From a virus: 64,000 bases of DNA. The stretch is from IMG/VR virus record IMGVR_UViG_3300010885_020782, positions 63,376-127,375 of that record. One strand, 5' to 3'. Position numbers and translations under genes: made by a program. Of the stretch, positions 11,162 to 41,740 are shown one piece after another (position 1 is the stretch's first letter; every line of letters begins with the position of its first letter). The notes under the pieces are model-generated. The model saw nothing but the letters and a program-made list of their open reading frames with translations. It searched no databases and was not told where the DNA came from.

Positions 11162-11177
11162 TGTGGGGTAAATCACA
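11162..11177. promoter_or_regulatory. CRP/GlxR-like box TGTGG-N6-TCACA
   Basis: TGTGGGGTAAATCACA, 21 nt upstream of TTGCGT -35. Confidence 0.5.
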
Positions 11178-11280
11178 GGGGAGATAGTGCTAATGGTCTT
11201 GCGTTATCTCTATGCAGATGTAATACTTTAGACATACAGAAACCGCAGGGGTTATGTATAGAAAAGAAAAGGGGAAACAA

Positions 11281-11535
11281 ATGTCAGCATATGGAACCGC
11301 AGTTACTATCAAGGGAACTACTTACCGCTACATCATTGACACAAAAGAGCAGGTAAGAGAACTTCTACTAGGTGCTACCGCACCTATCGAGAAGGTAGAA
11401 ATCCAAGAAGAAACTCGCGGAGAACCTCACCGCGAGATGAGTGCAGAGGAAATCCTTTACCTCGTCCTCAATCACCCAACACCCGCAGAGGTTGAAGAGA
11501 AAGATGTCGTAGTCCTAGCGACTACATCAGCCTAA
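11281..11535 (+). CDS. Small cassette protein
   Basis: SD AAAGGGGAAACAA-ATG, own promoter and terminator. Confidence 0.8.
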   Translation: MSAYGTAVTIKGTTYRYIIDTKEQVRELLLGATAPIEKVEIQEETRGEPHREMSAEEILYLVLNHPTPAEVEEKDVVVLATTSA

Positions 11536-11545
11536 AGAGTTACAG

Positions 11546-11577
11546 AGAAGCCCCCGCAGAAATGTGGGGGTTTTTCT
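11546..11577 (+). terminator. Intrinsic terminator (representative of the AGAAGCCCC..GGGGTTTCT family after most cassettes)
   Basis: CCCCCGC/GTGGGGG stem followed by TTTTTCT. Confidence 0.8.
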
Positions 11578-11578
11578 A

Positions 11579-11653
11579 TGTGGTGCAACTCACACGAAAT
11601 AGGAAAGAAAAATCGTCAATGAACTTGCACTATCCGTAAAAAGATTATATGCT
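11579..11653 (+). promoter_or_regulatory. CRP-like box plus sigmaA promoter
   Basis: TGTGGTGCAACTCACA (11579-94); TTGCAC (11625-30)-N17-TATGCT (11648-53). Confidence 0.7.
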
Positions 11654-11680
11654 TAGGCTAACAAAGAAAGGGGGAACAAA

Positions 11681-11902
11681 ATGTCAGTAGTTGAAATCCA
11701 AGTCAGCCCGCTACAACTCTTCATCTTGAAGCAGGGTCTAGAACTTGAAATCAAAACGGAATTGCGTATGCAAATGTCCGCAGAGTCAAGCCTAAAGGCG
11801 TTCAAGCGTCTAACAGGTATTGACACAGGCAGAGGTCTAAAGGGTCGTGAAAAGGCTCTAGACATAGTTATAGACTTCCTGAAGCAAGTAGGGGAAGAAT
11901 AA
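11681..11902 (+). CDS. Small cassette protein
   Basis: ORF track; SD AAAGGGGG. Confidence 0.8.
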   Translation: MSVVEIQVSPLQLFILKQGLELEIKTELRMQMSAESSLKAFKRLTGIDTGRGLKGREKALDIVIDFLKQVGEE

Positions 11903-11981
11903 GTCTGGAAAGGAAAGCCCCCCGCAAGGGGGGTTTTCTCTTGCAGGAAAAGACAGGTAAAAAGTAAAAACTTGCGAGCGC

Positions 11982-12010
11982 AAAGTTATCCACACCCTGT
12001 GGATAACTTT
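11982..12010. promoter_or_regulatory. Inverted pair of perfect DnaA boxes
   Basis: AAAGTTATCCACA-CCC-TGTGGATAACTTT; TTATCCACA at 11986-94, TGTGGATAA at 11998-12006. Confidence 0.6.
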
Positions 12011-12043
12011 CACTTCCCAACAACTTCCGCAGGGGTGCAAATG

Positions 12044-12119
12044 TGTGGTGCAACTCACACGACATTTTTAATCTTTTTTGCCAAATGTGGTTGCGTTACC
12101 CGTAGCCAACCCTTATACT
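12044..12119 (+). promoter_or_regulatory. CRP-like box plus sigmaA promoter
   Basis: TGTGGTGCAACTCACA (12044-59); TTGCGT (12091-96)-N17-TATACT (12114-19). Confidence 0.75.
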
Positions 12120-12171
12120 TCAGTTAGTGGAAATCGCAAGGGGCGATGGATACAAAGGGGAGATGATAGAA

Positions 12172-12546
12172 ATGTCTTACGGCTCATTTCACAATCTACT
12201 TGCTGGGAACAGTAAGTCCCTTACCGAAATTGAAATCGGTATGGGCGCAACACAAATCGGCTGGTCTGACCGCTACGCCTACACAGTAGTAGGGTTCGAG
12301 CGTTTCAAGACAGGTGCAAAGGCTGGACAAATAAAGGCAGTAATTGCCACTCGCGACATTGCAAAGCGCACAGACTCAAACGGCTACTACACAGAGAGCC
12401 AAGATTACGAGTTCACTACCAATCCAAACGCTAAGCAAGAACGCTACACACTCCGCAAAGATGGTCGCTTTATGCGTGAAGGCGCAACTAATTCAGGCGT
12501 TCTCCTAGTCGGTGTGCGAATGGAATACTTCGACCCACACTTCTAA
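12172..12546 (+). CDS. Conserved phage hypothetical protein (GMGAT..WSDRYAYT)
   Basis: SD AAGGGGAG; start refined from the ORF track. Confidence 0.8.
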   Translation: MSYGSFHNLLAGNSKSLTEIEIGMGATQIGWSDRYAYTVVGFERFKTGAKAGQIKAVIATRDIAKRTDSNGYYTESQDYEFTTNPNAKQERYTLRKDGRFMREGATNSGVLLVGVRMEYFDPHF

Positions 12547-12640
12547 AGTCGGAAAGGAAGCCCCCTCGGAAGAGGGGGTTTCTTTTTTGCTGGAAAAATT
12601 AAAACTATGTAAAAAGTAAAAACTTGCGAGCGTCAAAAAA

Positions 12641-12717
12641 TGTGATGCAACTCACACCAGCACATCTAAACAATTTTCCCAAATGGTCTTGCAACTACTC
12701 AACTAATTAGATACACT
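12641..12717 (+). promoter_or_regulatory. Perfect TGTGA-N6-TCACA box plus sigmaA promoter
   Basis: TGTGATGCAACTCACA (12641-56); TTGCAA (12689-94)-N17-TACACT (12712-17). Confidence 0.75.
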
Positions 12718-12769
12718 TAGACCAAGAAGCCAAGCCACAGGGGGCAAGGCAACTAACAAAGGGAAGCAA

Positions 12770-13033
12770 ATGTCTAAACTAATCACAGACGCAGAACTAA
12801 TCGCAGTAATGAACGGCACAAACAAAGACGGAAAGAAAGTCTTTCTTGCACTTTTTGAGCCACGAAAGAACTCACTTCCACAAATGGACGGACGCTCCGT
12901 AACCTTCCACGCAGACACTAAGGCAGAGGCAGAACGCCTAGCCAAAGAATACGGCAGAAGGATTTTGGATAGACGCTTAGCGTATCTAATGTCTTGCGAG
13001 GTTGAGGAAGCCCGCTACGGACTTCGCTACTAA
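12770..13033 (+). CDS. Small cassette protein
   Basis: ORF track; SD and terminator. Confidence 0.8.
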   Translation: MSKLITDAELIAVMNGTNKDGKKVFLALFEPRKNSLPQMDGRSVTFHADTKAEAERLAKEYGRRILDRRLAYLMSCEVEEARYGLRY

Positions 13034-13237
13034 AGTTAGCGAGAAGCCCCCGAGAAATCGGGGGTTTCTTTTTTTGCATTTTATTTTTTGATTTTGAGTA
13101 AAAAGTAAAAACTTAGTGGCTAGTGCTCGCAACTTCCAAACAACTTTTAGACACCGCACAGGGGGTGGAGAGAAATGGGCTTGCATTGTTGCAACATATC
13201 TTGTATGCTATATCTACCAACTACGAAAGGAAACAAA

Positions 13238-13531
13238 ATGCAATTCACAATTGACCCGCAACTAGGTTCAGGCACTTCACTCAAAGGTTATGTAACTTCA
13301 ACACTTGCAGAACTTATTGAAACCTTCGGAGAGCCCGAATACTTCGCAGAGGGCGACAAAGTAACAGTAGAGTGGTCAATCCTTTTTGATAACGGCACAG
13401 TCGCAACAATCTACGACTGGAAGCGTTACGAGATGGGAAGACCTGCACTCACCGAGGTATTCCAATACAACATTGGCGGACACGACCACGAGGCAGTAAC
13501 GCTAGTAAAAAAGGCACTCCGCAAGGGGTAG
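13238..13531 (+). CDS. Conserved aquatic-phage hypothetical protein (GTSLKGY..FGEP..DKVTVEW..TIYDWK)
   Basis: SD GAAAGGA; recognisable family motif. Confidence 0.8.
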   Translation: MQFTIDPQLGSGTSLKGYVTSTLAELIETFGEPEYFAEGDKVTVEWSILFDNGTVATIYDWKRYEMGRPALTEVFQYNIGGHDHEAVTLVKKALRKG

Positions 13532-13598
13532 TCTCCCGACTTGCAATCAGTAATCCTATGGGTTATGCTTGCTATAAGACAAACTACGAAAGGAACAA

Positions 13599-14210
13599 AT
13601 GACAACAGAGACAACGAAAAACGCTATACCGAAACGAGTTACATATAAAATTGTGGCTAGTGGGGAAGGAAAAATCATCAAGCGAAAGCAAGAACTTCCG
13701 CAAGATGTATTAGATATCTTCAAGGGTATTAGCGACATAAAGCAACGCAACCAATACATAATTGCATTGGGCGAGGCTGGCTGGACGGACTCTTCTATTG
13801 CAAGGGCAGTAGATGTTTCACGGGAACGAGTAAGGCAACTTGCTCAACAAACAACGAGCGACACTTCTCTCATTGGTGATTTACCAATCCCAAAGCCACC
13901 GCGAGAAACAAAGTATTCTAAAGTCTATCCCGAACTTCCAAAAGAAATGCTTGACAGACTATTAGAACTAAAACCACTTGCCCAACAGGTAAGAGGACAC
14001 GGCAAGATGTATCGTGCAGAGGCAGATGAATACACCTACCTTCTCAATCAAGCAATAACAACTCAAGGCATTTCCGTATATCGTCTTGCAAAGTTATTGG
14101 GTGTAACTATTGGTGCAATCCAATTCCGCTTGACACGATACGGCTACCGAACAACAACAGGAAAAAGTAAGTGCTTCCAACCAATTCTAGAAAAGAACCG
14201 CCGTGGCTAA
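13599..14210 (+). CDS. Tandem-HTH DNA-binding protein (paralog 2)
   Basis: GWTDSSIARAVDVSRERVRQL and ISVYRLAKLLGVTIGAIQFRLTRYGY. Confidence 0.8.
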   Translation: MTTETTKNAIPKRVTYKIVASGEGKIIKRKQELPQDVLDIFKGISDIKQRNQYIIALGEAGWTDSSIARAVDVSRERVRQLAQQTTSDTSLIGDLPIPKPPRETKYSKVYPELPKEMLDRLLELKPLAQQVRGHGKMYRAEADEYTYLLNQAITTQGISVYRLAKLLGVTIGAIQFRLTRYGYRTTTGKSKCFQPILEKNRRG

Positions 14211-14322
14211 ACCGCAACAATGTAGTAAATGTCAGGCGTGGTTCAATCCTAAGTTCGGTGGTGGTGGAGAGGGGTTATGTAAACCCTGCCACTATATTGA
14301 AATGAAGAAGGACAAAGAGTAA
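14203..14322 (+). CDS. Mini zinc-finger-like protein (CSKC..CKPC, 39 aa)
   Basis: Manual translation; GTG start overlapping the upstream gene. Confidence 0.5.
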   Translation: MAKPQQCSKCQAWFNPKFGGGGEGLCKPCHYIEMKKDKE

Positions 14323-14472
14323 ATGAAAGAGTTAGACGACCACGAGTTTCTTGGTGCTTGTCCAAAGTGCCAACAACTTATACAAGGTGCAGAGGTGTAT
14401 GACCGCGAGCGTGGGTGGATTACAGTATGGATTCACGCACACTCAAGACGAAGGCTCTGCTTAGTGGCATAA
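14323..14472 (+). CDS. Mini protein (CPKC, 49 aa)
   Basis: Manual translation; start abuts the upstream stop. Confidence 0.5.
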   Translation: MKELDDHEFLGACPKCQQLIQGAEVYDRERGWITVWIHAHSRRRLCLVA

Positions 14473-14508: not shown

Positions 14509-14517
14509 ATTTATAAA

Positions 14518-14811: not shown

Positions 14812-14914
14812 TTGTGCCGTCCTTCCTTGTCCTGCACAGAGCGTAAAAAGTAAAAACAACGCTCGGCTAGTCAATTTTAGATGACCAACCGAGCGTTGAT
14901 TATTGAAAAGGTGT

Positions 14915-15346
14915 TTAGGCTACGACTTCTACCGCAGTGTTCTTGAATAACTTAGTAATAAGTTTCTCATCTAGGACGAGTTCTTGGGTAGAACAACCAC
15001 AAAAGTCAGCAAGGGCTTTTTTAGTTCCTTCGCTTAGGTGTCCGCGACTATCAGAACCTGCGTCATCAAACCCGAGAACAATAAGTTGTTCTTGAACTAA
15101 GGCGACAGACGCAGAGTTGTGAGCAAACTTGTTTCCAAGCGCAGACAACGAAACAACTCCCGCAGTTGTTGAAACAACAGCAGGGGACTTTTTACTTTTT
15201 ACTACTGGTTCAGGCTCGACAGCCACAGCAAGAACAGGGGCAGGTTCTTCAACCACAGCCACAACCTCTACAACGGCGTCAGAAGCCTTTACTACTTCAG
15301 GCTCTACCGCAGGGGTAAAGACACTATAAAGGTCTTCATTACTCAT
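14915..15346 (-). CDS. Hypothetical protein with possible peptidoglycan-binding C-terminus
   Basis: VALVQEQLIVLGF..DSRGHL...TKKALADF resembles PG_binding_1. Confidence 0.55.
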   Translation of the reverse strand: MSNEDLYSVFTPAVEPEVVKASDAVVEVVAVVEEPAPVLAVAVEPEPVVKSKKSPAVVSTTAGVVSLSALGNKFAHNSASVALVQEQLIVLGFDDAGSDSRGHLSEGTKKALADFCGCSTQELVLDEKLITKLFKNTAVEVVA

Positions 15347-16541: not shown

Positions 16542-16741
16542 TTGATACCCCCCTTTCAAGACAAAGCATATAACACTCCATCATAGAAGTCAAGGGCAAT
16601 TAGAAAGGAATCAGGAAGAAGTTGTTGGGAAGTTGTGAAACCTGGCGAGCGCGAGGGCTTGGAGATACGCATAAAAAGTAAAAACTTACCCGCACAAAAA
16701 GAAACCCCGCACAAGGCGGGGCTTCTTCGTGGCAAAGTTAT

Positions 16742-16873: not shown

Positions 16874-17009
16874 TGGAATCCCCTTTCAATTTGTTAGGCA
16901 CAATATAACAGTCTTCAGGCAGTAAAGCAAGGAAGTTGTTTAGAAGTTGCCCGCAGCGAGGCTTGGACTCACGCATAAAAAGTAAAAAGTCCCACGGGAA
17001 AAAACGCTA

Positions 17010-17276
17010 CTAATCTTCGTAGTAGCGATTTTCGCAGGAACGCGAACCACAGTTGGCATAGCGAACCCCCGCAAGGCGGAAGGGAATGTCCCCGCCACAA
17101 ATCTCGCATAGGGGAATGCACTTCGAGCAGAAATCGCCCAAAGACTCTGCGGGCTTACCGCAGTCAGGGCAGGTGTGCGACAACTCCGCACAACGCCCGC
17201 ATAGGTGCGAACCACGCACCACAGAAATATCATCAGAAGCGTAGCCACAGTTGGCGCAAGTGTTGGAATCGAACAT
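17010..17276 (-). CDS. Cys-rich multi-zinc-finger protein
   Basis: Six CxxC-type pairs in 88 aa. Confidence 0.7.
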   Translation of the reverse strand: MFDSNTCANCGYASDDISVVRGSHLCGRCAELSHTCPDCGKPAESLGDFCSKCIPLCEICGGDIPFRLAGVRYANCGSRSCENRYYED

Positions 17277-18427: not shown

Positions 18428-18581
18428 TTTTACTTTTTACTCCTTTCGTCTCGTAGAAGTTTCCGCAACCGATAATTCTCTTTTGTGAGATTTCGGTGGG
18501 ACATTATTGAGATTACCATTACGGCGCACGAACTGGCGAGCGCAATAGTAATTCCGATTAGCGTTCCTGTATCTAAATACA

Positions 18582-19421: not shown

Positions 19422-19544
19422 CTTGTTCCCCTTTCGTTGTTGTTAGCCCAAGTATAACACTCTCTCCCCCCGAAAGTCAAACAGGGGGTTCGGGGAGAGA
19501 GCGTGTCGTTTAGGGGGCACATAGAAAGTTTTTACTTTTTACTA

Positions 19545-19685
19545 TCAACCCCAGTTAGTTTGGCACAGTTTCCATATTAGTTCTAAGACATTGTTCTTAG
19601 CCTCATAACTCTTTTCTGTTTCCAACACTTTCGCATACTCCTCTAGTGCGAATATGATTGTGCCCTTCTCTTTAGTGTCTAGCAT
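19545..19685 (-). CDS. Mini protein (46 aa)
   Basis: Manual translation; SD AAAGGGAG. Confidence 0.55.
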   Translation of the reverse strand: MLDTKEKGTIIFALEEYAKVLETEKSYEAKNNVLELIWKLCQTNWG

Positions 19686-19810
19686 TGTTCTCCCTTTTCT
19701 TTTTAGTGTTTAGCATTTACCGCAGACCAAACCATTATAGTAATTGTCTTGGTCAATCCTCATTGACTTACCGCACTTCCAGCAAGCGACATAAATCATC
19801 ACCTTCCGCA

Positions 19811-20694: not shown

Positions 20695-20780
20695 ATTGTA
20701 GCGTTTTGGATACCATAACGCAACTTATACTCGGCGTGTCGTGGTGTGAGTTACATCACACGATTACAACCTGTGGATAA
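20695..20780 (-). promoter_or_regulatory. sigmaA promoter, GACACGCC, CRP-like box and DnaA box
   Basis: TTGCGT (20718-23)-N17-TACAAT; TGTGAGTTACATCACA (20745-60); TGTGGATAA (20772-80). Confidence 0.7.
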
Positions 20781-21402: not shown

Positions 21403-21587
21403 TTGTCCCCCTTTCTTAGGTAACCGAAGTATAACAACCTATCACGAAGAAAGTCAAGTCAAGACACGAAAGTTATTGTGAAGTGCAGGACCGGCGAGGG
21501 CCCGGACTGAACAAAACTTTTTACTTTTTACTTTCATAGGGAGATGCAAAAGCCCCCGCATCTCTGCGAGGGCTTCCGCGTCAACCT

Positions 21588-21728
21588 TTAGAGATACTTC
21601 ATCGGGTCGGCATCTTCAAAGATATCTTCGATATCAGTGAAAGACCAAGTCTCCCAATTTATCTCTTTCATATTGAACTTGATACGGCAGTCTTGGCAGG
21701 TATCAAGGTCGCAATTAGAGTGTTGCAT
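21588..21728 (-). CDS. Mini protein (46 aa)
   Basis: Manual translation; SD and promoter at 21756-84. Confidence 0.6.
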   Translation of the reverse strand: MQHSNCDLDTCQDCRIKFNMKEINWETWSFTDIEDIFEDADPMKYL

Positions 21729-21921
21729 ACTTCCCCCTTTCTCTAATGTAGCCTAAGTATAATAGTCGGCTAGAGATAAGTCAAGGGCAGACACGAAAGT
21801 TATTATGAAGTCGAATGCACTTGGTTGCTGTTGCTGAAGAAAGTTTTTACTTTTTACTGTTACCGCAAAAAAAAAGAAAGAGAGCGCGGGGGGAACCGCG
21901 CCCTCTCCTTGTGGGGGAAGA

Positions 21922-22772: not shown

Positions 22773-23016
22773 AGTTGAATAATAAACCATCAACCGCAAT
22801 AAGTCAAGTATCTAATAAACCGAAAGTGTGTTCTACATCACATAAAAAGTTCTCGAAAACATTAACATTTATTTTGCTAAGGGTTTTAGCCAATAGGCGT
22901 GAGAAAGTTGTTTGGAAGTCCAGCACCGCTAGGGGACAGCCCCGCATAGTTTTTACTTTTTACTTTCCTATTGCAAAAGAAAAACCCCGTATTTCTACGG
23001 GGCTTCTCTCTAAGGC

Positions 23017-23205: not shown

Positions 23206-23387
23206 TGTGTTCCCCCTTTCTGTTGCCCTAAGTATAACCCTAGAAAGGTTCATAAGTCAAGTCAAGACACGAAAGTTATTGTGAAGTCCAGCACCGCTAG
23301 GGGTAAGTCCGCGTATAAGTTTTTACTTTTTACTGTTTCACCGCAAAAGAAAAAACCCCACCCGAAGGTGGGGCTTCTCCTAATTGT

Positions 23388-23570
23388 TTATCTGTAACCC
23401 GCAGCGTGGAGAGCCTTGAAAATATTGTTCACTCTTTCAACATTTATTTTCTCGTGCTCGTTCTCTTGCTTGTAGTTCATCATTTCAAACTCTTGAAGAA
23501 CGCAATCAAGTTGTGCTATTTGGCGTGCGTCAAAAGTTACTGTAATGGTAGTGCCTGTTGCTATACCCAT
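23388..23570 (-). CDS. Small cassette protein
   Basis: ORF track; SD. Confidence 0.65.
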   Translation of the reverse strand: MGIATGTTITVTFDARQIAQLDCVLQEFEMMNYKQENEHEKINVERVNNIFKALHAAGYR

Positions 23571-23635: not shown

Positions 23636-23965
23636 TTATTCCGTGTCGTCCTCGAAATCCTCGCCATCAAGGTCGAAGAAGCCCTGTCCTATGAGAGTTT
23701 CAAAACCCTTGTTCGGGTCTGTTGGGTGAGAGTTCACCGCGTCAATAAACCTAAGACCGCAAGAACCCTCGAACCACTCTTTTAGAAGTTCTAACATCTG
23801 TTCGGGTGTTGCTTCCGCATTAGTAATAAGTGGGTCATAACCATAACCGCGCATTACCTCTACCTGCTCATCGTCCATTAGCAAGTAAATCTTGTGGCAA
23901 GTATCGAACGCAATAGCCTTTGCGTCCTGCACTCTTTCTTCTACCAAACTGTAATCAACACTCAT
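23636..23965 (-). CDS. Conserved actinophage hypothetical protein (AIAFDTCHKIY)
   Basis: ORF track; coupled. Confidence 0.75.
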   Translation of the reverse strand: MSVDYSLVEERVQDAKAIAFDTCHKIYLLMDDEQVEVMRGYGYDPLITNAEATPEQMLELLKEWFEGSCGLRFIDAVNSHPTDPNKGFETLIGQGFFDLDGEDFEDDTE

Positions 23966-24689: not shown

Positions 24690-24904
24690 TTCTTCCCCTT
24701 TTCTTTATTAGGTTCAGTAGGGGAGTCGTATTGTTTCCGCCCCTTGCAAGTTATAGGCGTTCAGGTGACCAGCGACTTTCCCCCTACTGAATACCCTAAG
24801 TATAACCAAAAGGGGAAGAAAGTCAAGTCCTCTAGGCACGACACGCCAAAGTTATTTGGAAGTTGCCCTCGCAGCGAACGCCGGCGAGCGCAAGTTTTTA
24901 CTTT

Positions 24905-25480
24905 TTACTTCTCCCCGTAATACTGAACATTTATGTAAATCGGTGGGGCAGAGTTCGGGTCAAGTTTGGTGGCAATAGTTAGGGCTTGTCTAACCAAAGT
25001 CTTAGCCGTAGATAAAGTTCTTTTACGGGTTTCCATAGTTCCAAGTAAAGAACCAAGTGCGTAGGAAGAACCTGTTCCGATAGCGTAGATACCGCTTTCA
25101 TCTCTAGCCCAAGAGTAGTCGTTGCCTATCTCATAGATAGTCCCGTTGATTACGACCATCACATTACTGTCGTTATCGCTATCTTTGGAGTAAGAGTTTT
25201 CCTCAAAACATTTCTTCATTTCAGGGATAAAGGAAGCCGTCATAAATTTGTCTAACCTTAGACCATAGGTTGAGGGGCTAATGATGGGCGGTTTGAATAT
25301 GTAGCAAAGAATATTTATGGCTCTAACATCTCCAGCCACGCCAATGATGTAGTTCCCGTTCTTGAACATCTTGCCATTATCTTTTGGAAGTGAGTAAATC
25401 TTTTCGTTCTCCTCGGTTACCCGTGAGTCATATCCAACGACAGCCCAGTTCTCCCCTTGCACGCCAGCAATAGTCGTCAT
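24905..25480 (-). CDS. Ntn-hydrolase protease, HslV/proteasome-beta-like (paralog 1)
   Basis: N-terminal MTTIAG, YDSRVT, GVAG and AIGTGS motifs. Confidence 0.8.
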   Translation of the reverse strand: MTTIAGVQGENWAVVGYDSRVTEENEKIYSLPKDNGKMFKNGNYIIGVAGDVRAINILCYIFKPPIISPSTYGLRLDKFMTASFIPEMKKCFEENSYSKDSDNDSNVMVVINGTIYEIGNDYSWARDESGIYAIGTGSSYALGSLLGTMETRKRTLSTAKTLVRQALTIATKLDPNSAPPIYINVQYYGEK

Positions 25481-26441: not shown

Positions 26442-26789
26442 TTAGATTTTATCCACAATGGCTATGGGGACAATGACCTCGGCAGAAATAGTTTCGCCAT
26501 TACCCGACTTTCGGGCGAACCGCCCTGTGGGGTTATCCAGCATTACAGTAATCTTGCTTCGCCTAATGCCAACAATTTGTGCTGTTTCGCCGACAAGGTA
26601 TTTAGTTCCGCAACGCTCGTTGATACGAACCTTGTCGCCAACTAGGAAGTCAGAAAGTTTTAGCGAACCGCGCTTCTCCTCAATTCGTTTATCAACCGCT
26701 TGACGCAAGATTTGTAAGTGGCTATCAAGTTCTCCACTCTCTATCTTGTCTGTAAGTGAAACAATAAAGTCTAAGTTAGTCGTCGTCAT
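26442..26789 (-). CDS. Protein with SH3/KOW-like C-terminus
   Basis: FLVGDKVRI..YLVGETAQIVGIRRSKITV. Confidence 0.7.
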   Translation of the reverse strand: MTTTNLDFIVSLTDKIESGELDSHLQILRQAVDKRIEEKRGSLKLSDFLVGDKVRINERCGTKYLVGETAQIVGIRRSKITVMLDNPTGRFARKSGNGETISAEVIVPIAIVDKI

Positions 26790-27012
26790 TTTCTATCTCC
26801 TCTCCATTTTCATCTACGACACCAATGTCGTTAGATACTTTGGCAACATCAAACCCATAGTATTCTTCCATAAAGATAGAAGCGCAACGAATAGCGAAGT
26901 CGTTATCGCTCTCTCCTTCGTTTCGCAATTCATTATGAAGAACGATAGTGGTCATTAGCGTAAAGTAATCGCCAACGAACATTACTGTTCTTGAAAGATT
27001 TATCTCGTCCAT
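26776..27012 (-). CDS. Hypothetical acidic protein
   Basis: ORF track; coupled. Confidence 0.7.
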   Translation of the reverse strand: MDEINLSRTVMFVGDYFTLMTTIVLHNELRNEGESDNDFAIRCASIFMEEYYGFDVAKVSNDIGVVDENGEEIENDDD

Positions 27013-27302: not shown

Positions 27303-28454
27303 CTATTTTGCTAGGACATAAACCTTGTCTTTCATAACCAAAGGTTTGTCGTCCGGCCCCTTTACATAAGGTGCTATCCAAATCCGCTTCTTAGTATTGT
27401 CCTTGTAAGGTTGCCATCTCCAATGACCGCCGACTACCCATCTGTGCGACCAATCTATGAAGCGACCATCATCAGACTTTTCTCCACTCTTGTATTCTGT
27501 TTTGCGAAGTTGCACAACAACATACTCGCTAGGAAGTTTTGCCTTCTCCATAGACTTTCTAATTCCGCGTTGAGGTGTTTTCTTTTCAGTAGATACAATA
27601 GTTTGCGACATCATCAAAAAGTATGCGTGCATAAATCGTGGAAAGTTATCCATACCAACGAAATCGTTTTGATAGTTCTCTTTCCAATAGTCCGCGTCTA
27701 ACTCAAATTGTTCTTGTCGCTTTTTTCCGCCGACCTTTTCTCCGTGTCCAGCAGACTCAACGGAAGAGAGCAACCACTTACCAACATTTCTACGGAACTC
27801 CGCAACACTCTTTCCTGTTGCCTCTGCTGTTCTTTCTAGCATAGGCATAGAGTCGTCAGCCATTACATCAAAATTATTGAATAAGTAATAAACAATTTGT
27901 CTATCTTGCATTTCCCAAAGAACGGCGTGGATTATGTATTTGTTTCCTTCTATGTCGTTTGTTTCTACGCCCTTCTCAAAGTAAGCAAAGCCTCTAAGAC
28001 TAGGGACAAGTTCTAAGTCAAAGGTATCTGTTTCATCTAGTTGATTAGAAGCGAACGCAATTACATCTGTCATTTCGCCTTTTACTAAATAAACATCAGC
28101 CTCTTCAGTAATCGTAACCATTTCCTTGACCATAGTTTCGGCAAGGTCAATTTTTGTTTTACCTGTTCTCATAGTCCCTGTTAGAGATAGAGCCTTCTTC
28201 TCTGTATCAAAAGTAACCGCAGAACCATACTGCGCTACATTGTTTAGGCAGAATAGTTTTTGTCCATAGAAGAACAACGCACCTTTTTTGCCAGCAAGTT
28301 CTGTTTTGTATTTAGCAAAAATATCCCTAACAATTTCATCTTCTTCATCTCTGCACTTTACAGATAGGACATTAGTTAGGACATAACCCGCATTACCTTT
28401 TAGGCGCAGGTTTAGGTCGTTGAGTAGCGTAAGCGTTTCATCAGGTCTAATCAT
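27303..28454 (-). CDS. Conserved phage protein with C-terminal HRW.V.GHWR.Q..IWI.PY.KGP motif
   Basis: 383 aa; SD; promoter at 28478-507. Confidence 0.85.
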   Translation of the reverse strand: MIRPDETLTLLNDLNLRLKGNAGYVLTNVLSVKCRDEEDEIVRDIFAKYKTELAGKKGALFFYGQKLFCLNNVAQYGSAVTFDTEKKALSLTGTMRTGKTKIDLAETMVKEMVTITEEADVYLVKGEMTDVIAFASNQLDETDTFDLELVPSLRGFAYFEKGVETNDIEGNKYIIHAVLWEMQDRQIVYYLFNNFDVMADDSMPMLERTAEATGKSVAEFRRNVGKWLLSSVESAGHGEKVGGKKRQEQFELDADYWKENYQNDFVGMDNFPRFMHAYFLMMSQTIVSTEKKTPQRGIRKSMEKAKLPSEYVVVQLRKTEYKSGEKSDDGRFIDWSHRWVVGGHWRWQPYKDNTKKRIWIAPYVKGPDDKPLVMKDKVYVLAK

Positions 28455-28508
28455 TTGTTTCCCCTTTTCATACCCTAAGTATAAAACTATCTTTCCCCAA
28501 AGTCAAGT

Positions 28509-28961
28509 CTATTCTTCGTCCCACTCTTCCGAGTCTTCGTCCGAGTTTTCTTCCTTAGACTTATAGACAACTTCCTCAACAGGCATAAAGTCCAATAAGT
28601 CTAAGTCCTGCGTCAAGTCAAGAACTAGACACTCTTCGCACCTCTTGTAGTCAATAGACCTCTCAAAGTGGCGAAGTTCCTCTATGGAAACATCTAAACC
28701 ACTCTCCATCTTGGCAAGAATAATTCTTGTCCGCAAAGCCCTATGCTCTAACATATTTTGAGCATAGACATAATCTTCGTGGCGAATAAGGTCAGAGTCT
28801 TTGATTTGCTTTTCCTGTGTCTTGCAAGTCGGCAACCAAAGTGTGTCTTTATCTATGATTAGTTCGTAACCATCATCAGAAGTTTTAGTTGAGATAGGTT
28901 CGTAACTATGTAGAACTTTGCTAGTTAGTGGGTTGTGCGTGTATTTTCTTTTGTTAGTCAT
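28509..28961 (-). CDS. Hypothetical protein
   Basis: ORF track. Confidence 0.65.
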   Translation of the reverse strand: MTNKRKYTHNPLTSKVLHSYEPISTKTSDDGYELIIDKDTLWLPTCKTQEKQIKDSDLIRHEDYVYAQNMLEHRALRTRIILAKMESGLDVSIEELRHFERSIDYKRCEECLVLDLTQDLDLLDFMPVEEVVYKSKEENSDEDSEEWDEE

Positions 28962-29093
28962 AGTGCAACCTTATCAAATAGTTTTTGGTTTTGCAACTTA
29001 TCTCTCCCCTGCGTGTCGTTTGTGTTTTTACTTTTTACTATCCCTGTTTTGTAAGAAACCCCCCACCCTTTCGGGTGAGGGGCTTCCTCGCAA

Positions 29094-29480
29094 TTACTTG
29101 CCTGTCTTGAGAGCCTTGTAAGGGGCTGGAATTGTGAAGTCCTTGAGTAGGGCTTCAACTGTTGGGTGTGTCTTGAAAAGGTTTTCCTTATCAAGTTTTG
29201 TAGCGTTGATTGTTGCAACACGCACAACAACATTACCTGCAACTGTTCCTGCTTCCGCAGTTCCTACCCACTCATCATTTACGAGTGTGTATCCGAGTAG
29301 TGCATAGAGTTCAGCCTTTAGAGCCTTCTCTGTATCTTGATTGGCTTTGATAGTGTCTTTCACGCTATCAAGTTTTACAAGCAGTTCGCTTGCATTAGTT
29401 GCGTCAAGCGCAACTTGCGTTGTAGTAACAGATGTAACAACCTTTGTTGTTACTTCTGTTTCAACTTTGGTTCTAGGCAT
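29094..29480 (-). CDS. Hypothetical protein
   Basis: ORF track; SD; promoter TTGCTT-N17-TAAAGT with perfect CRP-like box at 29604-19. Confidence 0.75.
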   Translation of the reverse strand: MPRTKVETEVTTKVVTSVTTTQVALDATNASELLVKLDSVKDTIKANQDTEKALKAELYALLGYTLVNDEWVGTAEAGTVAGNVVVRVATINATKLDKENLFKTHPTVEALLKDFTIPAPYKALKTGK

Positions 29481-30388: not shown

Positions 30389-30628
30389 TCACTCTTGCCA
30401 CCCGCCCGTCATAACTTCCCAACAACTTGGGTGCGTGCCTGTAATCATTTGCTCACGCAACGCCTTATCCATTTCAGGGTAAGCGTCTTGAATAGCACCG
30501 CCTAATTGGCGAATAAGAAATCCCTTCATAGGAACTTCAACTGTTCCACCCTTGCCACACATTGTGCAAGTAGGGGTTTCAACTATGTAAGTTGTTTCCT
30601 CTACTACCTTTCCGAACTCTGTTTCCAT
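30389..30628 (-). CDS. Small zinc-ribbon-like protein (CTMC..IQDAYP..REQMITGTHP.CW)
   Basis: Recognisable actinophage small family; SD. Confidence 0.75.
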   Translation of the reverse strand: METEFGKVVEETTYIVETPTCTMCGKGGTVEVPMKGFLIRQLGGAIQDAYPEMDKALREQMITGTHPSCWEVMTGGWQE

Positions 30629-31195: not shown

Positions 31196-31250
31196 TTTTA
31201 CTTTTTACCCTTTCTTTCGTTCTTGGTTGAGAACTATTATCCCATTTTAT

Positions 31251-31691
31251 TTATGCAAAGTCAAGTAGCAACATCTTTTCATTTTCATACTGTTCCTTCA
31301 CATAGGAACTCGCACTTTGGAGAGCCTCTGAAATACTGTCGCATACCCAATCTAAATGCTCTCCGCGACAATACAAGTCAAACCAGTTGTTGTTGTCCCA
31401 GTTCAAGGCGTTCTCGCCATTAGCAAGGCGTAAGTCCTCATCACAATTTATACCTAAGCCATAAAAATCTGACGCAGTTCTAAGGATTGTTTCTGTTGGT
31501 TCGTGGATTACACGAACTTCTCCATCTGCATAAACATCTACCTCAAACCCTTTATAGGAAACTTGGCAGATAAATCCATCACCTTCATACCAAAGGCTAT
31601 CGTCTTGTTTTTCTAAGTTGGGAGCAACTCCAGAAAACATAGAAGCCCAAACAACTTTTGAACCTTCTAATAATTCTTCTACTGTTTTCAC
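31251..31691 (-). CDS. Hypothetical acidic protein
   Basis: ORF track; SD. Confidence 0.75.
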   Translation of the reverse strand: MKTVEELLEGSKVVWASMFSGVAPNLEKQDDSLWYEGDGFICQVSYKGFEVDVYADGEVRVIHEPTETILRTASDFYGLGINCDEDLRLANGENALNWDNNNWFDLYCRGEHLDWVCDSISEALQSASSYVKEQYENEKMLLLDFA

Positions 31692-35495: not shown

Positions 35496-35732
35496 TCAAA
35501 TCGTGTCAGGGTCAGGCAAATCCATCAAGAGGTTTCCATACTGCCGAGATACTTCTACTGCCTTACTGCCTCTATCGCTGTCTGTGCAGTTCTCAACTTC
35601 TGCCCAGTCTTCCTCTGTCCAAAATTGGGTTTGGCAAAGGACAATCCCATCTGCACTTCCATAATTTCCGTCCATAGCAAAGTAATGGATTTGTGGTTGT
35701 GGTGGCATTTTTTCATTTAGTTCTTCTGACAT
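35496..35732 (-). CDS. Hypothetical protein
   Basis: ORF track; coupled. Confidence 0.7.
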   Translation of the reverse strand: MSEELNEKMPPQPQIHYFAMDGNYGSADGIVLCQTQFWTEEDWAEVENCTDSDRGSKAVEVSRQYGNLLMDLPDPDTI

Positions 35733-36412
35733 TATTCAGCACCTACTATTTCTATCTCACGAACTTCGTGAAGTTCTATTGGTTTGGTTTTGTTCGGACA
35801 ATCTTTATACCACTCGTCTTCATCTTCTTCACTAGCGCAACGACAACCATCTACATTATCTCTATCAACATAATCTTTGTGTGAGTCAGGTATGTCGTAT
35901 TCACTAACAATGCTAGAGCCTTCTTTTGTCCAAAGGATTTCTCCACCCCAGCCTTGTTCTTCTTCATACTCCAAAGTTATTTCTAACTCGGGGTGTTGAA
36001 CAGATAGTTCCTCAATAACAGGAAGTGGTGGCGACCACGCAGTATCAAAACGATACGAAATGTGTGTAGCAGACTCGCTAGTTATTTCTGTCGCAGACCA
36101 ATCATTTGGGCTGTCTGATTTAGCGACATCCCACTTAGTTCCCCATTTATTGTTGTTGAAGTTATACCAGTTGTATTCAGTTTCACCAGTAGCCTTACCA
36201 TCTTCAAATCCGTGAGTCCCGAAGTATTCCTCTAACTTATCTTCAGGTGGAGCAATAATGTTCCAAAACGAAAAGATGGGGTTTGAGTAAATAGTTGGTT
36301 CTTTATCTTCGCCATACTGTTTTACAAGTGGCTTGTTTAGTTGAGCCTTTACTTTCGCAATGGCTTCTTCTGTTCCCTCTATTGAAAGATTGTTATAGAC
36401 ATAGTTTGGCAT
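35732..36412 (-). CDS. DUF1281/YubB ferredoxin-like domain protein
   Basis: MPNYVYN..WYNF...WGTKWD..FDTAWSPP.PV..L...HPEL...Y.EE. Confidence 0.8.
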   Translation of the reverse strand: MPNYVYNNLSIEGTEEAIAKVKAQLNKPLVKQYGEDKEPTIYSNPIFSFWNIIAPPEDKLEEYFGTHGFEDGKATGETEYNWYNFNNNKWGTKWDVAKSDSPNDWSATEITSESATHISYRFDTAWSPPLPVIEELSVQHPELEITLEYEEEQGWGGEILWTKEGSSIVSEYDIPDSHKDYVDRDNVDGCRCASEEDEDEWYKDCPNKTKPIELHEVREIEIVGAE

Positions 36413-36876: not shown

Positions 36877-37361
36877 AGCACCAGTCTAACGCTTGCCGTT
36901 GATTTGTCAAGCCCCGTTGCTGAAGACACGCCGACTTCCTAACAACTTCTTTAGCGGGGCTCAGCGCATCTGCTACTTTTTACTTTTTACTCGGTTCGGT
37001 ATAAGCGCTCGCCGTTTTTACTTTTTACTCTCCAGGCCCTGGCGGTTGGTGCACTTCCAAATAACTTATACAGCGCTGGCAGCAAATGTTTTCTGGTGCA
37101 CTTCCGAACAACTTCAAGATGTCAAGACGGCGGCGGAAATCTTCAGCGGTTAGATAAAAGAAAAAGCGTGCCAACTCCGTGTCTCGCACGAAATTATTGG
37201 CACGCCGTTTGTTGCGTTTGAATTAGTCTTTGGTGTCGGGGCAGACTTCCTCTAGGTTTGAATCATCCTGCTTTACAGCGCAGATGGAACAAATGGTAAT
37301 CATCCCGAAGCCGTCATCCCTATCGGGAATCTCAACGAATAAGTGGTTCATAGATGTAATC

Positions 37362-38631: not shown

Positions 38632-38892
38632 TCATTTCACAATCTCCGCATACTCGCTAGACATTTCGCTAAGGACATTTGAAAGATGTTGGTCGTGGGG
38701 GTCAAGCCCTCCAGAAGATTCCATCTCCTCAACCATTTTGAGCCAGCCCTCGTCTGTGAGAGTCATCTCATCTTCCTCGGGATAATCAAATGTATCTTTT
38801 GAATAAATCAAAACAATAACTTCATCTTCAGCATCGTAGTTCGTGGTTACCATTTGGACCAGGTCTTTGACTTTCATACAACTTCCTTTCAT
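38632..38892 (-). CDS. Acidic small protein
   Basis: ORF track; real start probably MKVKD. Confidence 0.65.
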   Translation of the reverse strand: MKGSCMKVKDLVQMVTTNYDAEDEVIVLIYSKDTFDYPEEDEMTLTDEGWLKMVEEMESSGGLDPHDQHLSNVLSEMSSEYAEIVK

Positions 38893-39137
38893 TGGTTGGT
38901 GTGTCTGGGTAACGGGCTTTTTGGCCTAGGACCTCAACCCTCTTCGTCATCCATCTGGAATTCGCCCCAGACACAAGACGTATCTAAACATACTGAAATC
39001 AGGTTGTCAAGTCCTAGGAAATAAAAAAGTCCCCGTGTTCGCTGATGGCGGGGAAACCCATCAAACCAAGTCATAATGCTTAGAACTAGAAAGGTAGATG
39101 TCTAAGCGACTTTGCGAATTATAAAGTAACAGCGGTC

Positions 39138-39389
39138 TTAGTCTCCTGTCAAATCGTGTCGTGCTCTAGCAGTCTCTTCCATCTCATCGGTTACTTCTGT
39201 AGTCTTCGGAAGATTGATAATCTCACCCGTTACAGCATCCACAATTTGTCCATTCACAATCTGGAGTTGAGGTCCCTGGTCAAGATGTCTTCCCAACAAC
39301 TCATCAACGTCAGCGGTTACTTGTATGTATCCCTTTTGCACTTCGCGTTTGAGCAGTGCGTATCCAACCCACGCCGTTATGAGTCCCAT
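39138..39389 (-). CDS. Small protein downstream of whiB
   Basis: ORF track; SD GAGAGGGG. Confidence 0.65.
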   Translation of the reverse strand: MGLITAWVGYALLKREVQKGYIQVTADVDELLGRHLDQGPQLQIVNGQIVDAVTGEIINLPKTTEVTDEMEETARARHDLTGD

Positions 39390-39664
39390 CGGTCCCCTCT
39401 CAGCGCTTGCCGTTGTTCAACGGTCATGCCTCCCCACACCCCGTATTGCTCGGGGACATTGAGTGCGTGCTCAAGGCACGCCGTTCTCACTGGGCACGCC
39501 CCACATACTGCGAGCGCTCTCGATTCGCGGGCCGCTTTCTCGGGGCCCCGTTGACCGTGTTCGAGAAAAAATATTTCAGTGTCTTCATCTTTACACAGGC
39601 CGTGTTCTTGCCATGCATAAAAGTCAGCGGTTGGTTTAAGTCTTTCGATAATTTTTGTGTCCAT
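39377..39664 (-). CDS. whiB: WhiB-family Fe-S transcription factor (WhiB3/WhiD-like), leaderless
   Basis: WQEHGLC..FF..GQRG..C..CPV...CLEHAL..E.YGVWGG; TTGACA (39695-700)-N17-TACCGT (39672-77), 7 nt before ATG. Confidence 0.92.
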   Translation of the reverse strand: MDTKIIERLKPTADFYAWQEHGLCKDEDTEIFFLEHGQRGPEKAARESRALAVCGACPVRTACLEHALNVPEQYGVWGGMTVEQRQALRGDRWDS

Positions 39665-39719
39665 GGCAGCAACGGTACAAGCAGCGCTCGTCGTTGTCAA
39701 GTGGTGGTGGTGGTGGCGG

Positions 39720-40640
39720 AGGTTTCAGTGGCGGCGGGCCGTTTGTCAAAAAGTTATTTGGAAGTTCACTTTCGCATCGGAGATGCGAAAGCAGTCTACT
39801 CCCCAGGCAAGCCGTTGTCAAGTTTTTCTAAGCGTGGCTCAGAAGACGGTTGGCCGCCAGGTAGACATCACAACAACTTATTAATTCACGGTTGGTCCCA
39901 CAAGTCCCGTTGGTCCGACCGGTCCTGGTACCAACATCTCAACAACTTAAATTTTCACAGCAGCATCTGGAGCATCGGTTAATACTCAGTCGGACGTCTG
40001 GTCCCTCGACATCTCAATAACTCGAACGGTTCACCTGGCAGCATCACGGTTCGTTCCATCATGTGGGTTGGTCCCACTCGTCACAATAACTTCAGCGGTT
40101 GACTACAGCACTGTCGAGGCAGCGGTTAAATATATACAGCGTCCCCATCTACCAGGCCGCTCTTCGTCCAGGCCGCCTTTGAGTTTTTACTTTTTACTAG
40201 CGGTTGACTCAACCCAGGAATCTGGAGAAGTAATAAACAGCAGCGAGCATCACGGTCACGCCGCTTATGAGTTTAATCACATCAAGCACGGTTATCCTCC
40301 AAGCCGCTCTGTGTATACGGTTAGAACTAAGGGTGTACGAATCTTACGGTTATATGAACGTTACTGCACCGGCGCAGCGGTCAACTTCACAACAACTTCC
40401 TTACGCGGGCCGCTCTTCAGCGGCAAGCCGTTCTTCTCTTTTGACTGCACATTGGGGGCACACGGTTAATGACTTGTCATACGCCTCGCCGCACCAGAAG
40501 CAATCGGTTAATACGGTTTCCATCTTGGGTCCTTACTTTTTACTTTTTACTTTTTACTCTTACGACACGCCGTCGTTTCGATTTGACATCAATACGTTAT
40601 CTTAGTAGGCTAGGTTCTTGCCAAGCCTACTTAGATAACT
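39720..40640. repeat. Non-coding kilobase with about 70-bp degenerate periodicity and clustered motifs
   Basis: 15-mer copies at 39865, 39934, 40009, 40078 (spacing 69/75/69); over 15 CGGTT/CGGTC; (TTTTTAC)x3; palindromes at about 39769-39790 and 40596-40639. Confidence 0.7.
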
Positions 40641-40791
40641 ATTTACTTTTTATATGGTTGAACAGTTCAAGGGCTTCGTTAGCGCGAGCCGTTACGCGGA
40701 TATGTTCTTCCCTGGTCTTTGACAACGGAATATCTTCTTGAAGTCTTTCCGCCAGGCGGGCCGCCAACTCCTCTAAGTTATTTTGTTCCAT
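40639..40791 (-). CDS. Small helical protein (50 aa)
   Basis: Manual translation MEQNNLEELAARLAE..TREEHIRVTARANEAL; SD GAGGAG. Confidence 0.65.
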   Translation of the reverse strand: MEQNNLEELAARLAERLQEDIPLSKTREEHIRVTARANEALELFNHIKSK

Positions 40792-41707
40792 CGGTTGGCT
40801 CCTCGCCGTTTAAATTGTTTGAGTCCTCCATGACCACTTCAGCCTCAATAACTTTTACATCTACAAGGCTGGCCGCTTTCCGTTGGGCAGCATCAGCGAG
40901 CCGTTGCAATCTTTCAGCCACGATGTCTTTGGCGGGCCGAACCTCAAGAACTCCACCTACATCAACTTCCACGCCACCTCTTACACCAGCACGGTCAAGT
41001 ATCTCGGTTGAGGCTTTAAGGCGGACTGGTTCTGACTGAGCGGTATCCATCAACTCTTCAAGAACATCAACGGCTGCGCTCGCAGATTGCTTTAACTTCT
41101 GGCGTGCCCACTCGACATCTGCTCCTGGCCGACGGTTAGTTCGTAGATGGATGCGACACAAGCCGTCATCCTTTGGACGCCCGCTCGACCATAACATACA
41201 GCGGATGCCGTCGGTCTTGACAATTCGGCATCGGTGAGGTAGACTGGAAGGTGCACGGTTTTTACTTTTTACTACCTTGCCGTTTTCCTCGTCAACGAAT
41301 AGACGGGTTGCACCAAGTACCCAAGGTGGTGTAACCTTGCAAGCAGCCTCATCTACCAAGAGGTCGAGGCCCGTTAAGAAGTCTGAGTTGTTTTTAGTTG
41401 GGTCGGTTAGAAGTGCTCGCTTCTCGGAAAGGCTTTGGAGGCGACGCTCTTTCAGTGCTTCCTGGGAACGCCCTGCAATCAAACCCGTTGGTCGTCCTAG
41501 TTGGTCATAAACTGTGTCCCACTGCAAGCCCGCGGCGCGAAGCGCTCTGCGGTTATCTGCTGTGTCTTCGACGATGCCGCGTTCGTGCTCAAGGAGTCCG
41601 AGGGCTGAGAGGTCGGGTCGGTAATCATATGGGGTATCGAGGTCAGGAAGTTTAGAGGTTGGGTCTTCCTCTTCGCGCTCGCCAAATAGGTCAATCTCGG
41701 TTGCCAT
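40778..41707 (-). CDS. Terminase small subunit-like protein
   Basis: Cys/His cluster CR..K.DG.RC..LCRIH and AVDVLEELM..VRLKASTEILDRAG, as in actinophage TerS-like proteins. Confidence 0.5.
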   Translation of the reverse strand: MATEIDLFGEREEEDPTSKLPDLDTPYDYRPDLSALGLLEHERGIVEDTADNRRALRAAGLQWDTVYDQLGRPTGLIAGRSQEALKERRLQSLSEKRALLTDPTKNNSDFLTGLDLLVDEAACKVTPPWVLGATRLFVDEENGKVVKSKNRAPSSLPHRCRIVKTDGIRCMLWSSGRPKDDGLCRIHLRTNRRPGADVEWARQKLKQSASAAVDVLEELMDTAQSEPVRLKASTEILDRAGVRGGVEVDVGGVLEVRPAKDIVAERLQRLADAAQRKAASLVDVKVIEAEVVMEDSNNLNGEEPTDGTK

Positions 41708-41740
41708 TAGTTTTTACTTTTTACTTTCGGTTAAGGACGA

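Follow-up and report, generated by a model that had tools for sequence, protein, structure and literature searches.

A 64,000-nucleotide window, comprising bases 63376-127375 of the 127,375-bp IMG/VR record IMGVR_UViG_3300010885_020782 (about 95% complete), carries an array of small phage genes whose intergenic junctions are built from a shared set of repeated motifs. These junction repeats are probably regulatory units that double as substrates for homologous recombination, so that gene cassettes in the putative early arm would be shuffled much as proposed for the promoter-stem-loop cassettes (PeSLs) of T4-type phages. The interpretation is based on the composition of the junctions and on differences among close relatives, which gain, lose or reposition whole expression units. 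Positions given below are those of the window unless another genome is named, and the phage itself is referred to as G000.

G000 has a GC content of about 43%, and its gene calls are heuristic. Its portal gene (7285-9033, minus strand) encodes a protein 74% identical to the portal of Actinomycetia phage DSL-LC01, whose genome was assembled from a Dishui Lake metagenome (PMC10611076). The next matches, which are more distant, are found in Microbacterium, Arthrobacter and Gordonia phages, and about 600 portal relatives occur in IMG/VR. Because the nearest portals are those of actinophages and the array encodes a WhiB-family transcription factor (39377-39664, minus strand; PF02467, E value 1.5e-23), the assignment to an actinophage made in an initial annotation is borne out. 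We consider G000 to be a lytic-type, siphovirus-like freshwater actinophage of about 127 kb, in which the small-gene region would be an early or accessory arm, the early timing being suggested by promoter consensus. No integrase or lysogeny module was evident in the annotated part of the phage. Likewise, no phage RNA polymerase was found among the large open reading frames (ORFs) of G000 or in the DSL-LC01 annotation, so the host RNA polymerase must read the array promoters. A megablast search with 7 kb of the array against cultured phages returned no match.

Repeated junctions divide the array into putative expression units

The junction motifs span positions 11162-41724. According to the ORF map and the junction table, about 65 small genes form a leftward, probably early or accessory array (14518-44811, minus strand), and this array is convergent with a rightward unit of seven genes that has the same junction modules (11281-14472, plus strand). 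The small genes number about 70 in total and the promoter-like sites about 28, or roughly 2.5 genes per unit, in agreement with the numbers in the initial annotation (about 70 genes and at least 25 promoters). Only nine Pfam families were recognized among 65 array proteins, the content including WhiB, HslV-like, MoxR AAA, VWA, SLT, DUF3846 and Zn ribbons.

The strict promoter pattern TTGACW-N16-18-TAYACT occurs 11 times, always within the region and on the coding strand, and the scan with it recovered the promoters previously placed at 19451, 20592, 21428, 21756, 22323, 23231, 24428 and 28478. A relaxed scan identified 28 array sites, compared with about seven expected for the array's share of the genome, and nearly all of these lie 15-60 nt upstream of an AAAGGGG-type Shine-Dalgarno (SD) sequence and a start codon. 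An independent promoter scanner, with which a control region was also scanned, reported sixteen 10/12 matches, all with TTGACT and all on the minus strand.

The most strongly enriched word of the array, far above every other k-mer, is a tandem repeat of GTAAAAA (GTAAAAAGTAAAAA, hereafter the heptad). The 127-kb genome has 27 exact copies, all at 11957-41724, against a chance expectation of 0.05 (1.9 when up to two mismatches are allowed). Also enriched are GACACGCC, which occurs 5' of the -35 element in both orientations, the -35 word ACTTGACTT and the SD word AAAGGGGAA. The element ACTTCNNAAYAACTT, hereafter the ACTTC box, is present in 17 copies, 16 of them in the region, versus zero expected, and both GACACGCC and CRP-like boxes (TGTGA-N6-TCACA) are specific to the array.

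In a complete junction the order in the direction of transcription is terminator, heptad, GC-rich spacer of 20-41 nt, ACTTC box, GACAC or CRP-like element, promoter and SD. Full junctions on the minus strand include those at 23231-23373 (terminator 23350-23373, heptad 23320-23333, ACTTC box 23273-23287, promoter 23231-23260), at 22779-23002 (terminator 22980-23002, heptad 22950-22963, ACTTC box 22905-22919, CRP-like box 22827-22842, promoter 22779-22807), at 21756-21908 (terminator 21877-21908, heptad 21844-21857, ACTTC box 21797-21811, promoter 21756-21784) and at 21428-21573 (terminator 21548-21573, heptad 21518-21531, ACTTC box 21470-21484, promoter 21428-21457). The rightward unit has a full plus-strand junction at 11918-12059, where the terminator is followed by a heptad (11957-11970), a TTATCCACA palindrome (11986-12006), an ACTTC box (12012-12026) and a CRP-like box (12044-12059). 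Two further plus-strand junctions combine a terminator (12557-12588), a heptad (12609-12622) and a CRP-like box (12641-12656) at 12557-12656, and a terminator (13043-13075), a heptad (13098-13111) and an ACTTC box (13132-13146) at 13043-13146. The minus-strand junction at 24799-24908 has no hairpin (heptad 24895-24908, ACTTC box 24849-24863, promoter 24799-24826), and a compound minus-strand junction at 36882-37114 contains three inverted ACTTC (AAGTT) boxes, heptads at 37015-37028 and 36977-36990, and a near-leaderless promoter. A GC-rich hairpin followed by a T-run is present in about 10-13 junctions, where it lies 5' of the promoter without overlapping it.

Individual elements can also be flipped. 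Heptads are inverted in place within otherwise standard junctions at 14843 and 20817 (exact copies) and at 16671 and 16975 (one mismatch each). The latter two belong to the minus-strand junctions at 16565-16725 (terminator 16696-16725, inverted heptad 16671-16684, ACTTC box 16619-16633, promoter 16565-16593) and at 16933-17027 (hairpin 17005-17027, inverted heptad 16975-16988, ACTTC box 16933-16947). ACTTC boxes are inverted in the 30-41 kb part of the window, and those at 30414 and 33004 are intragenic. Elements also occur apart from one another, with heptads abutting start codons, between coupled genes or in frame within genes.

The initial annotation described every junction as following one stereotyped layout. 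The motifs and their order are real, but the complete set is present at only about eight of 68 gene boundaries; about 32 have at least one motif and 36 have none. The motif-free boundaries are those of overlapping or coupled genes, with operon runs of up to six genes. Between junctions, repeats form families of 24-45 nt with 75-100% identity and reach up to 90 nt. Examples are a 43-nt tract covering the -35 element, GACAC and the ACTTC box (95% identity) and a 24-nt tract of heptad plus CTTGCGAGCG (100%).

Several other words were observed in or near the junctions. The -35 word is tandemly doubled (cTTGACTTGACt) in several of them (21457 and 23260 in the window, about 19310 in G001), and this could be a scar of crossovers at the -35 element or could be functional. 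Perfect DnaA-box words (TTATCCACA) occur at 11986-12006, 20772-20780 and 26449-26457, one of them as an inverted pair within a junction spacer. The word GCGAGCGC(A) has 13 copies in the array versus one in the remaining genome; these range from 11974 to 41682, are mostly in one orientation and are partly intragenic. A hairpin with a 17-bp stem (14857-14898), beside an inverted heptad and near the point where the plus-strand unit and the minus-strand array converge, probably acts as a strong terminator in both directions.

Close relatives differ by whole cassettes

A pattern scan of IMG/VR with the composite motif returned 21 loci, of which only those of G001 (60 kb), G002 (36 kb, 3300027710) and G003 (17 kb, 3300009059) are from relatives. 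The rest (G006-G013) have one to four motif copies, similar to control counts, and were rejected as chance matches. G001-G003 are from three different metagenomes. Their portal identity is 97%, and their DNA is 85-95% identical to the window and largely collinear with it. All clean insertion and deletion events were catalogued and their joins read. Whole expression units differ among the four genomes in seven events, and in at least six the breakpoints fall within junction motifs. The joins overlap by 5-90 nt and are free of scars; read from the joins themselves, such overlaps are the signature of homologous or microhomology recombination.

Two events concern a mobile 60-aa gene, here gene A (23388-23570, minus strand), which has the -35 word at both sides. 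G000 has it before gene B, G002 and G003 have it after gene B, and G001 lacks it. At either position the insert is edged by the repeated -35 word acTTGACTTA (TTGACTTA), with a repeat of 24-27 nt in G002 and G003. In the third event, a 62-aa gene present in G001 and G002 and absent in G000 is flanked by acTTGACAa, and in the fourth, a gene of about 70 aa in G001 and G002 is flanked by TACACTTACACCA, which comprises the -10 element plus leader. The fifth and sixth are cassettes that G002 lacks. One (21536-21838, minus strand) contains a 46-aa gene (21588-21728) and has its crossover in the heptad, since the junction that remains in G002 consists of the left junction through the heptad and the right junction from the spacer on. 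The other (11981-12545, plus strand) contains a 124-aa gene (12172-12546) and is flanked by direct repeats of 60-90 nt composed of terminator, heptad and CTTGCGAGCG. The seventh is an extra 46-aa gene (19545-19685) in a segment at 19551-19701 (minus strand) that is absent in G001-G003 and has a heptad (19529-19542) as its downstream edge. The remaining differences are indels within genes and one 1.15-kb insert outside the array, near 10602, which is present in G001 (47152-48305) and G002 (28184-29336), is absent in G000 and G003, and has no flanking repeat.

The initial annotation had staked its shuffling proposal on gene order varying among relatives and on breakpoints tied to the junctions. 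Both were found: the orders of G001-G003 and of two more distant genomes, G004 and G005, differ, and the joins of at least six of the seven events lie inside junction motifs. That the rearrangements are merely chimeras produced by repeats during metagenome assembly is highly improbable. All relatives are IMG/VR contigs, and repeats could confuse assemblers, but most of the repeats are 10-45 nt long, shorter than the usual k-mers and reads. Moreover, the same arrangements are found in independent assemblies, which argues against misassembly: G002 and G003, from different samples, have identical arrangements, and the cassette at 21.7 kb is shared by G000, G001 and G003.

How cassettes may move

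G000 encodes an AAA_24 (Sak4-type) protein, a PD-(D/E)XK nuclease, an SNF2 helicase and PolA, and the annotation of DSL-LC01 adds RecA-like and RuvC-like genes. No integrase, transposase, homing nuclease or cassette recombinase was identified among 75 array proteins. As crossovers use any shared junction word and there is no cassette recombinase, general short-homology recombination suffices. A dedicated, integron-like system, in which a phage recombinase or homing nuclease would use the heptad as its attachment site, is hard to credit. The heptad is the longest perfectly repeated word and is found at the edge of three of the seven events, but crossovers also occur at the -35 element, at the -10 element and leader and at terminators, heptads persist inside genes, and the array proteins include none of the enzymes that would be needed.

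We propose that the array consists of about 28 autonomous expression units of one to six small genes, many of them closed by an intrinsic terminator. A host sigma-A-type promoter (TTGACT-N17-TATACT) would stand at the start of each unit, together with an SD that is strong and extended. The boxes between terminator and promoter (the heptad, AAGTTGTT/ACTTC, GACACGCC and the CRP-like palindrome) most likely bind proteins that tune the array or switch it off. Junction words, recurring dozens of times, could act as portable homology for recombination within a genome or between co-infecting relatives, with the Sak4-type annealase and the PD-(D/E)XK nuclease as plausible drivers. Crossovers inside these words would then delete, insert or reposition whole units and leave the genes undamaged. 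In this scheme we infer the activity of promoters and terminators, the early timing, the recombination enzymes and the role of the extra boxes.

An alternative is that the junction repeats are purely regulatory and that recombination is random and illegitimate, with only the products of intergenic breaks surviving; the pattern would then reflect selection and not mechanism. Phages in general have mosaic boundaries at gene borders, a cassette that brings its own promoter cannot avoid being flanked by promoter-like words, and neither the event at 19551-19701 nor the 1.15-kb insert near 10602 has flanking repeats, all of which would fit. However, six of the seven events join with an overlap of 5-90 nt exactly in a shared word, with no bases gained or lost, whereas random breaks in intergenic spaces of 50-300 bp usually leave non-homologous remnants. 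The phage also has a short-homology recombination kit, and we regard this alternative as unlikely.

Several points nevertheless weigh against junction-mediated shuffling. Promoters, terminators and early timing are assigned by consensus only, and the comparison is limited to seven events in four close genomes, each of which is a metagenome assembly. A promoter-bearing cassette inserted before another promoter is always flanked by promoter words, so part of the repeat signal is built in. In most events the homology tracts are short (10-45 nt), and the 150-bp segment at 19551-19701 has no clear flanking repeat. Half of the 68 gene boundaries examined are without any junction module, and the 1.15-kb insert means that indels also occur outside the array, which is not uniquely plastic.

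Cassette arrays in the wider clade

Across the clade, gene A has at least four different contexts. The copy in G000 is closer to the type found in L126 and L127 (92% identity) than to that of G002 (78%), and at least part of the apparent reordering therefore reflects independent gains from other lineages, made at different junctions. Gene A was also observed at 88% amino acid identity in an unrelated phage lineage (L129-L136) with other intergenic signals, among them a recurrent leader beginning aaccgccaggag; the 60-aa gene appears to have moved horizontally from one phage group to another. In the more distant G004 and G005 (portal identity 76-77%) a backbone of about 35 genes is kept in order, the genes at 23636 and 21922 are at different relative positions, and many genes are lineage-specific, with about 40% variable.

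DSL-LC01 has no heptads and no AAGTT boxes. Its small-gene array (L137/L114, OQ999401.1, about 24.8-43.3 kb) has instead 17 copies of GATTCTAAAGATGTTATAAT(A/T)GAATC, arranged in a module in which a GC hairpin is combined with an extended -10 promoter, itself enclosed by a GATTCTA...TAGAATC palindrome, and with a leader and SD (ACGACGAAAGGACAA, 15-20 copies). The promoter palindrome looks like an operator. Since DSL-LC01 has the same architecture with another junction, the cassette array is a clade trait whose junctions are homogenized in each lineage. A homogenized junction brand of each lineage's own amounts to concerted evolution of junctions within lineages, a point that is new.

The heptad is a polar, conserved nucleotide word

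The heptad is asymmetric, and 25 of the 27 exact copies point in the direction of transcription. The core, AAAAAGTAAAAA, occurs throughout a subclade, with 183 copies in 0.94 Mb of portal-anchored loci versus 0.1 expected, and it is usually preceded by ta-GC (GT in the G000 lineage). Heptads occur after terminators, in 5' leaders, and between coupled genes with the upstream stop codon in or next to the heptad. One at 31208 lies between the SD and the ATG, and those at 18440 and 31208 abut the ATG. A triple heptad is located at 40537-40557 (minus strand), where a degenerate fourth unit, GTAAGGA, forms the SD of a 40-aa gene.

Two minus-strand heptads are in frame within genes, one at 41259-41272 in a 309-aa gene (40778-41707, frame taken from coordinates) and one at 15189-15202 in a 143-aa gene, where it reads VKSKK. 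Orthologues of the latter gene are only 39-46% identical, and at least 11 distinct, diverged sequences have AAA-AGT-AAA-AA perfectly conserved inside a hypervariable linker. As the core is kept at synonymous sites in such a linker, there must be selection on the nucleotide word. The conservation of a polar heptad core throughout the subclade, synonymous sites included, is a new point.

By analogy, our best guess for the heptad is a stoperator-like operator, its polarity and positional freedom being most similar to those of the stoperators of phage L5. Tentatively, a protein of the phage or the host bound to AAAAAGTAAAAA may block or modulate elongating RNA polymerase and bring about early shut-off, any role of the heptad in recombination being incidental. 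This possibility concerns the function of the heptad only and complements the recombination model. It would account for a site that is polar yet free in position (short intergenic spaces, stop and start codons, post-terminator sites and 5' leaders), for its abundance and synonymous conservation, and for a match to the published description of L5 stoperators (PMC9283540). Against it, the sites are confined to one arm and are not genome-wide, the annotated part of the phage has no integrase or lysogeny module, and four copies (two exact, two with one mismatch) are inverted.

Alternatively, the heptad could function at the RNA level, as a leader or spacer that is rich in A, of the (ARN)x4 type, and aids translation start or termination-reinitiation, or as a site of cistron processing. 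Heptads in G004 and G005 and several in G000 directly adjoin the start codon (AAAAAGTAAAAATG), a purine run resembling an SD lies just 5', and the upstream stop is often in or near the motif. The start codon is within 6 nt of the heptad in 35 of 146 unique contexts, and in 21 of 146 the last A of the motif is the A of the ATG. Strict co-orientation fits a signal in the transcript, and cluster K start-associated sequences and T7 RNase III sites would be analogues. Nevertheless, only about 14-25% of copies are within 6 nt of a start codon, and many lie behind a terminator and 60-140 nt 5' of the next promoter, a location that only read-through transcripts would include. The four flipped copies in otherwise standard junctions favor recognition at the level of DNA, and an RNA role seems to us unlikely.

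Other explanations for the heptad were considered and set aside. The T of the first heptad varies across the clade and T-7 is missing, which does not fit the -10 element of leaderless transcripts. With only five A residues before G, the word is not an X XXY YYZ slippery site for frameshifting. Two copies close only two frames, and flipped and in-frame copies exist, so a multi-frame stop is not a sufficient explanation. The 7-bp period is out of helical phase for A-tract curvature. A phage RNA polymerase as the reader of the heptad was rejected as none was found in the large ORFs of G000 or the DSL-LC01 annotation, and a ribbon-helix-helix regulator on tandem 7-mers, by analogy to the omega protein, as no such domain was detected by Pfam among 65 array proteins.

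A candidate binding protein and a non-coding hub

Read on the opposite strand, the ACTTC box consists of two direct repeats with an 11-bp period (GAAGTTGTTNN x2). A candidate binder of these asymmetric boxes is a basic 203-aa protein (13599-14210, plus strand) with two modules resembling the helix-turn-helix (HTH) of sigma region 4. It is the only clearly basic clade-conserved protein of the region, and its family, which has a Sigma70_r4-type HTH, numbers more than 275 members. The structure model, a confident one (predicted local distance difference test, pLDDT, 86), has two modules, each with beta-strands plus a helical HTH, and a fold search with it gave only weak matches to sigma-4 and paired domains. 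A paralogue with 43% identity is encoded outside the array (54680-55261, plus strand), and a weak third one (26% identity) was noted at 10063-10581, beside head genes. No homologue of the stoperator repressor was found by name in the phage.

The other clade-conserved small proteins of the array are unlikely binders, most being strongly acidic. The most conserved ones, at 26776-27012, 23636-23965, 35732-36412 and 31251-31691, are extremely so; one example has 78 aa with 20 D+E versus 4 K+R. Such very acidic proteins could mimic DNA or act against the host.

G000, G001, G004 and G005 each have the heptad, the AAGTT box and the tandem-HTH family, and DSL-LC01 has none of the three. Among portal-anchored loci, the heptad is associated with the tandem-HTH family in 15 of 23 versus 0 of 8, which would support a polar operator. 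However, phylogeny confounds this co-occurrence, since all genomes with the heptad belong to a single subclade, and the protein is a candidate binder only. We treat the co-occurrence as a lead suggested by gene content and not as evidence of binding. More speculatively still than the operator function itself, the heptad, the AAGTTGTT box with its 11-bp period and the duplicated sigma-4-like HTH family might together form a subclade-specific, polar, stoperator-like control that silences or times the 30-kb early arm in a lytic phage of abundant freshwater actinobacteria, with selection on the word intense enough to have fixed it at synonymous sites of a gene.

A non-coding region at 39720-40400 (minus strand) contains five to six AAGTTRTTGNGAWG boxes at a spacing of about 70 bp, more than ten AACCG words and one heptad. 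This hub could be a replication origin or a regulatory center.

Comparison with known systems

The host-takeover clusters of phages SPO1 and T5 are dense rows of small early genes with strong host-type promoters, strong SDs and terminators, and the array described here is similar in these respects. We know of no description of shuffling through junction repeats in those clusters, or of a heptad-like polar word. In integrons, cassettes are exchanged at one defined site by a recombinase, whereas here the array encodes no recombinase and crossovers occur at several words.

The heptad resembles the stoperators of cluster A phages (L5 gp71; PMC9283540, PMC6550527) in being short and asymmetric, in having more than 20 copies located in short intergenic spaces with an orientation tied to transcription, and in having lineage-specific variants (GT, GC or GG). 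It differs in that it is confined to one arm (30 kb of a 127-kb genome), whereas stoperators are distributed genome-wide, including the structural arm. In addition, the phage here is without evident lysogeny, and the heptad is a tandem 7-mer where the stoperator is a 13-mer. Like the start-associated sequences (SAS) and extended SAS (ESAS) of cluster K phages (PMC3203893), the heptad is a polar repeat of 13-14 nt confined to the non-structural half of the genome, with some copies directly 5' of the ATG and the upstream stop inside the motif. Virtually all SAS, however, are 3-7 nt from the start codon and contain an SD core, whereas the heptad is mostly distant from starts (35 of 146 contexts within 6 nt) and has no SD complementarity, so that an SAS-type role in RNA fits only the start-proximal minority. 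Kept as a nucleotide word even within a gene, the polar heptad poses a puzzle of its own, and one that can be tested.

In the literature searched, we found no description of such an array in actinophages or of these motifs. The initial annotation had suggested an undescribed system. This does not hold for the kind of system, since PeSLs are known, nor for a dedicated system, and it does hold for this phage group and for the extra boxes. The PeSL concept would thereby be extended from T4-type phages of Gram-negatives to freshwater actinophages of a clade that is uncultured and very abundant, with about 600 portal relatives in IMG/VR, where it may help to explain the turnover of host-takeover and anti-defence repertoires. 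The junctions could also serve as a source of promoter and terminator parts for low-GC actinobacteria.

In T4-type phages, PeSLs are regulatory repeats proposed as sites of homologous exchange (Arbiol et al. 2010, PMC2839356; Comeau et al. 2014, PMC4122927). Four of their features are found in the array: a sigma-70-type early promoter in a repeated motif, recognized here by consensus match only (11 strict and about 28 relaxed sites); a stem-loop, here the GC-rich hairpin; a hyperplastic region of small ORFans, here a 30-kb small-gene arm that contains the motifs and has about 40% variable genes; and indels or replacements bounded by modules, here seven cassette events with at least six joins in junction words. 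Both systems combine terminator, sigma-70-type early promoter and SD in composite repeats, close relatives differ by whole genes bounded by modules, and inter-module homologous exchange is the proposed mechanism. The PeSL-like interpretation of the initial annotation is thus supported, with overlap-type crossovers in junction motifs and a gene order that is not fixed. The array is known from sequence alone, whereas mini-circles and promoter and terminator activity belong to the description of PeSLs. In the array, the hairpin lies 5' of the promoter and is separated from it by the heptad, the AAGTT/ACTTC box, GACACGCC and the CRP-like element, boxes that PeSLs do not have. Given the unrelated host phylum and phage lineage and the unrelated motif sequences, the junctions would work like PeSLs without being members of that family by descent.

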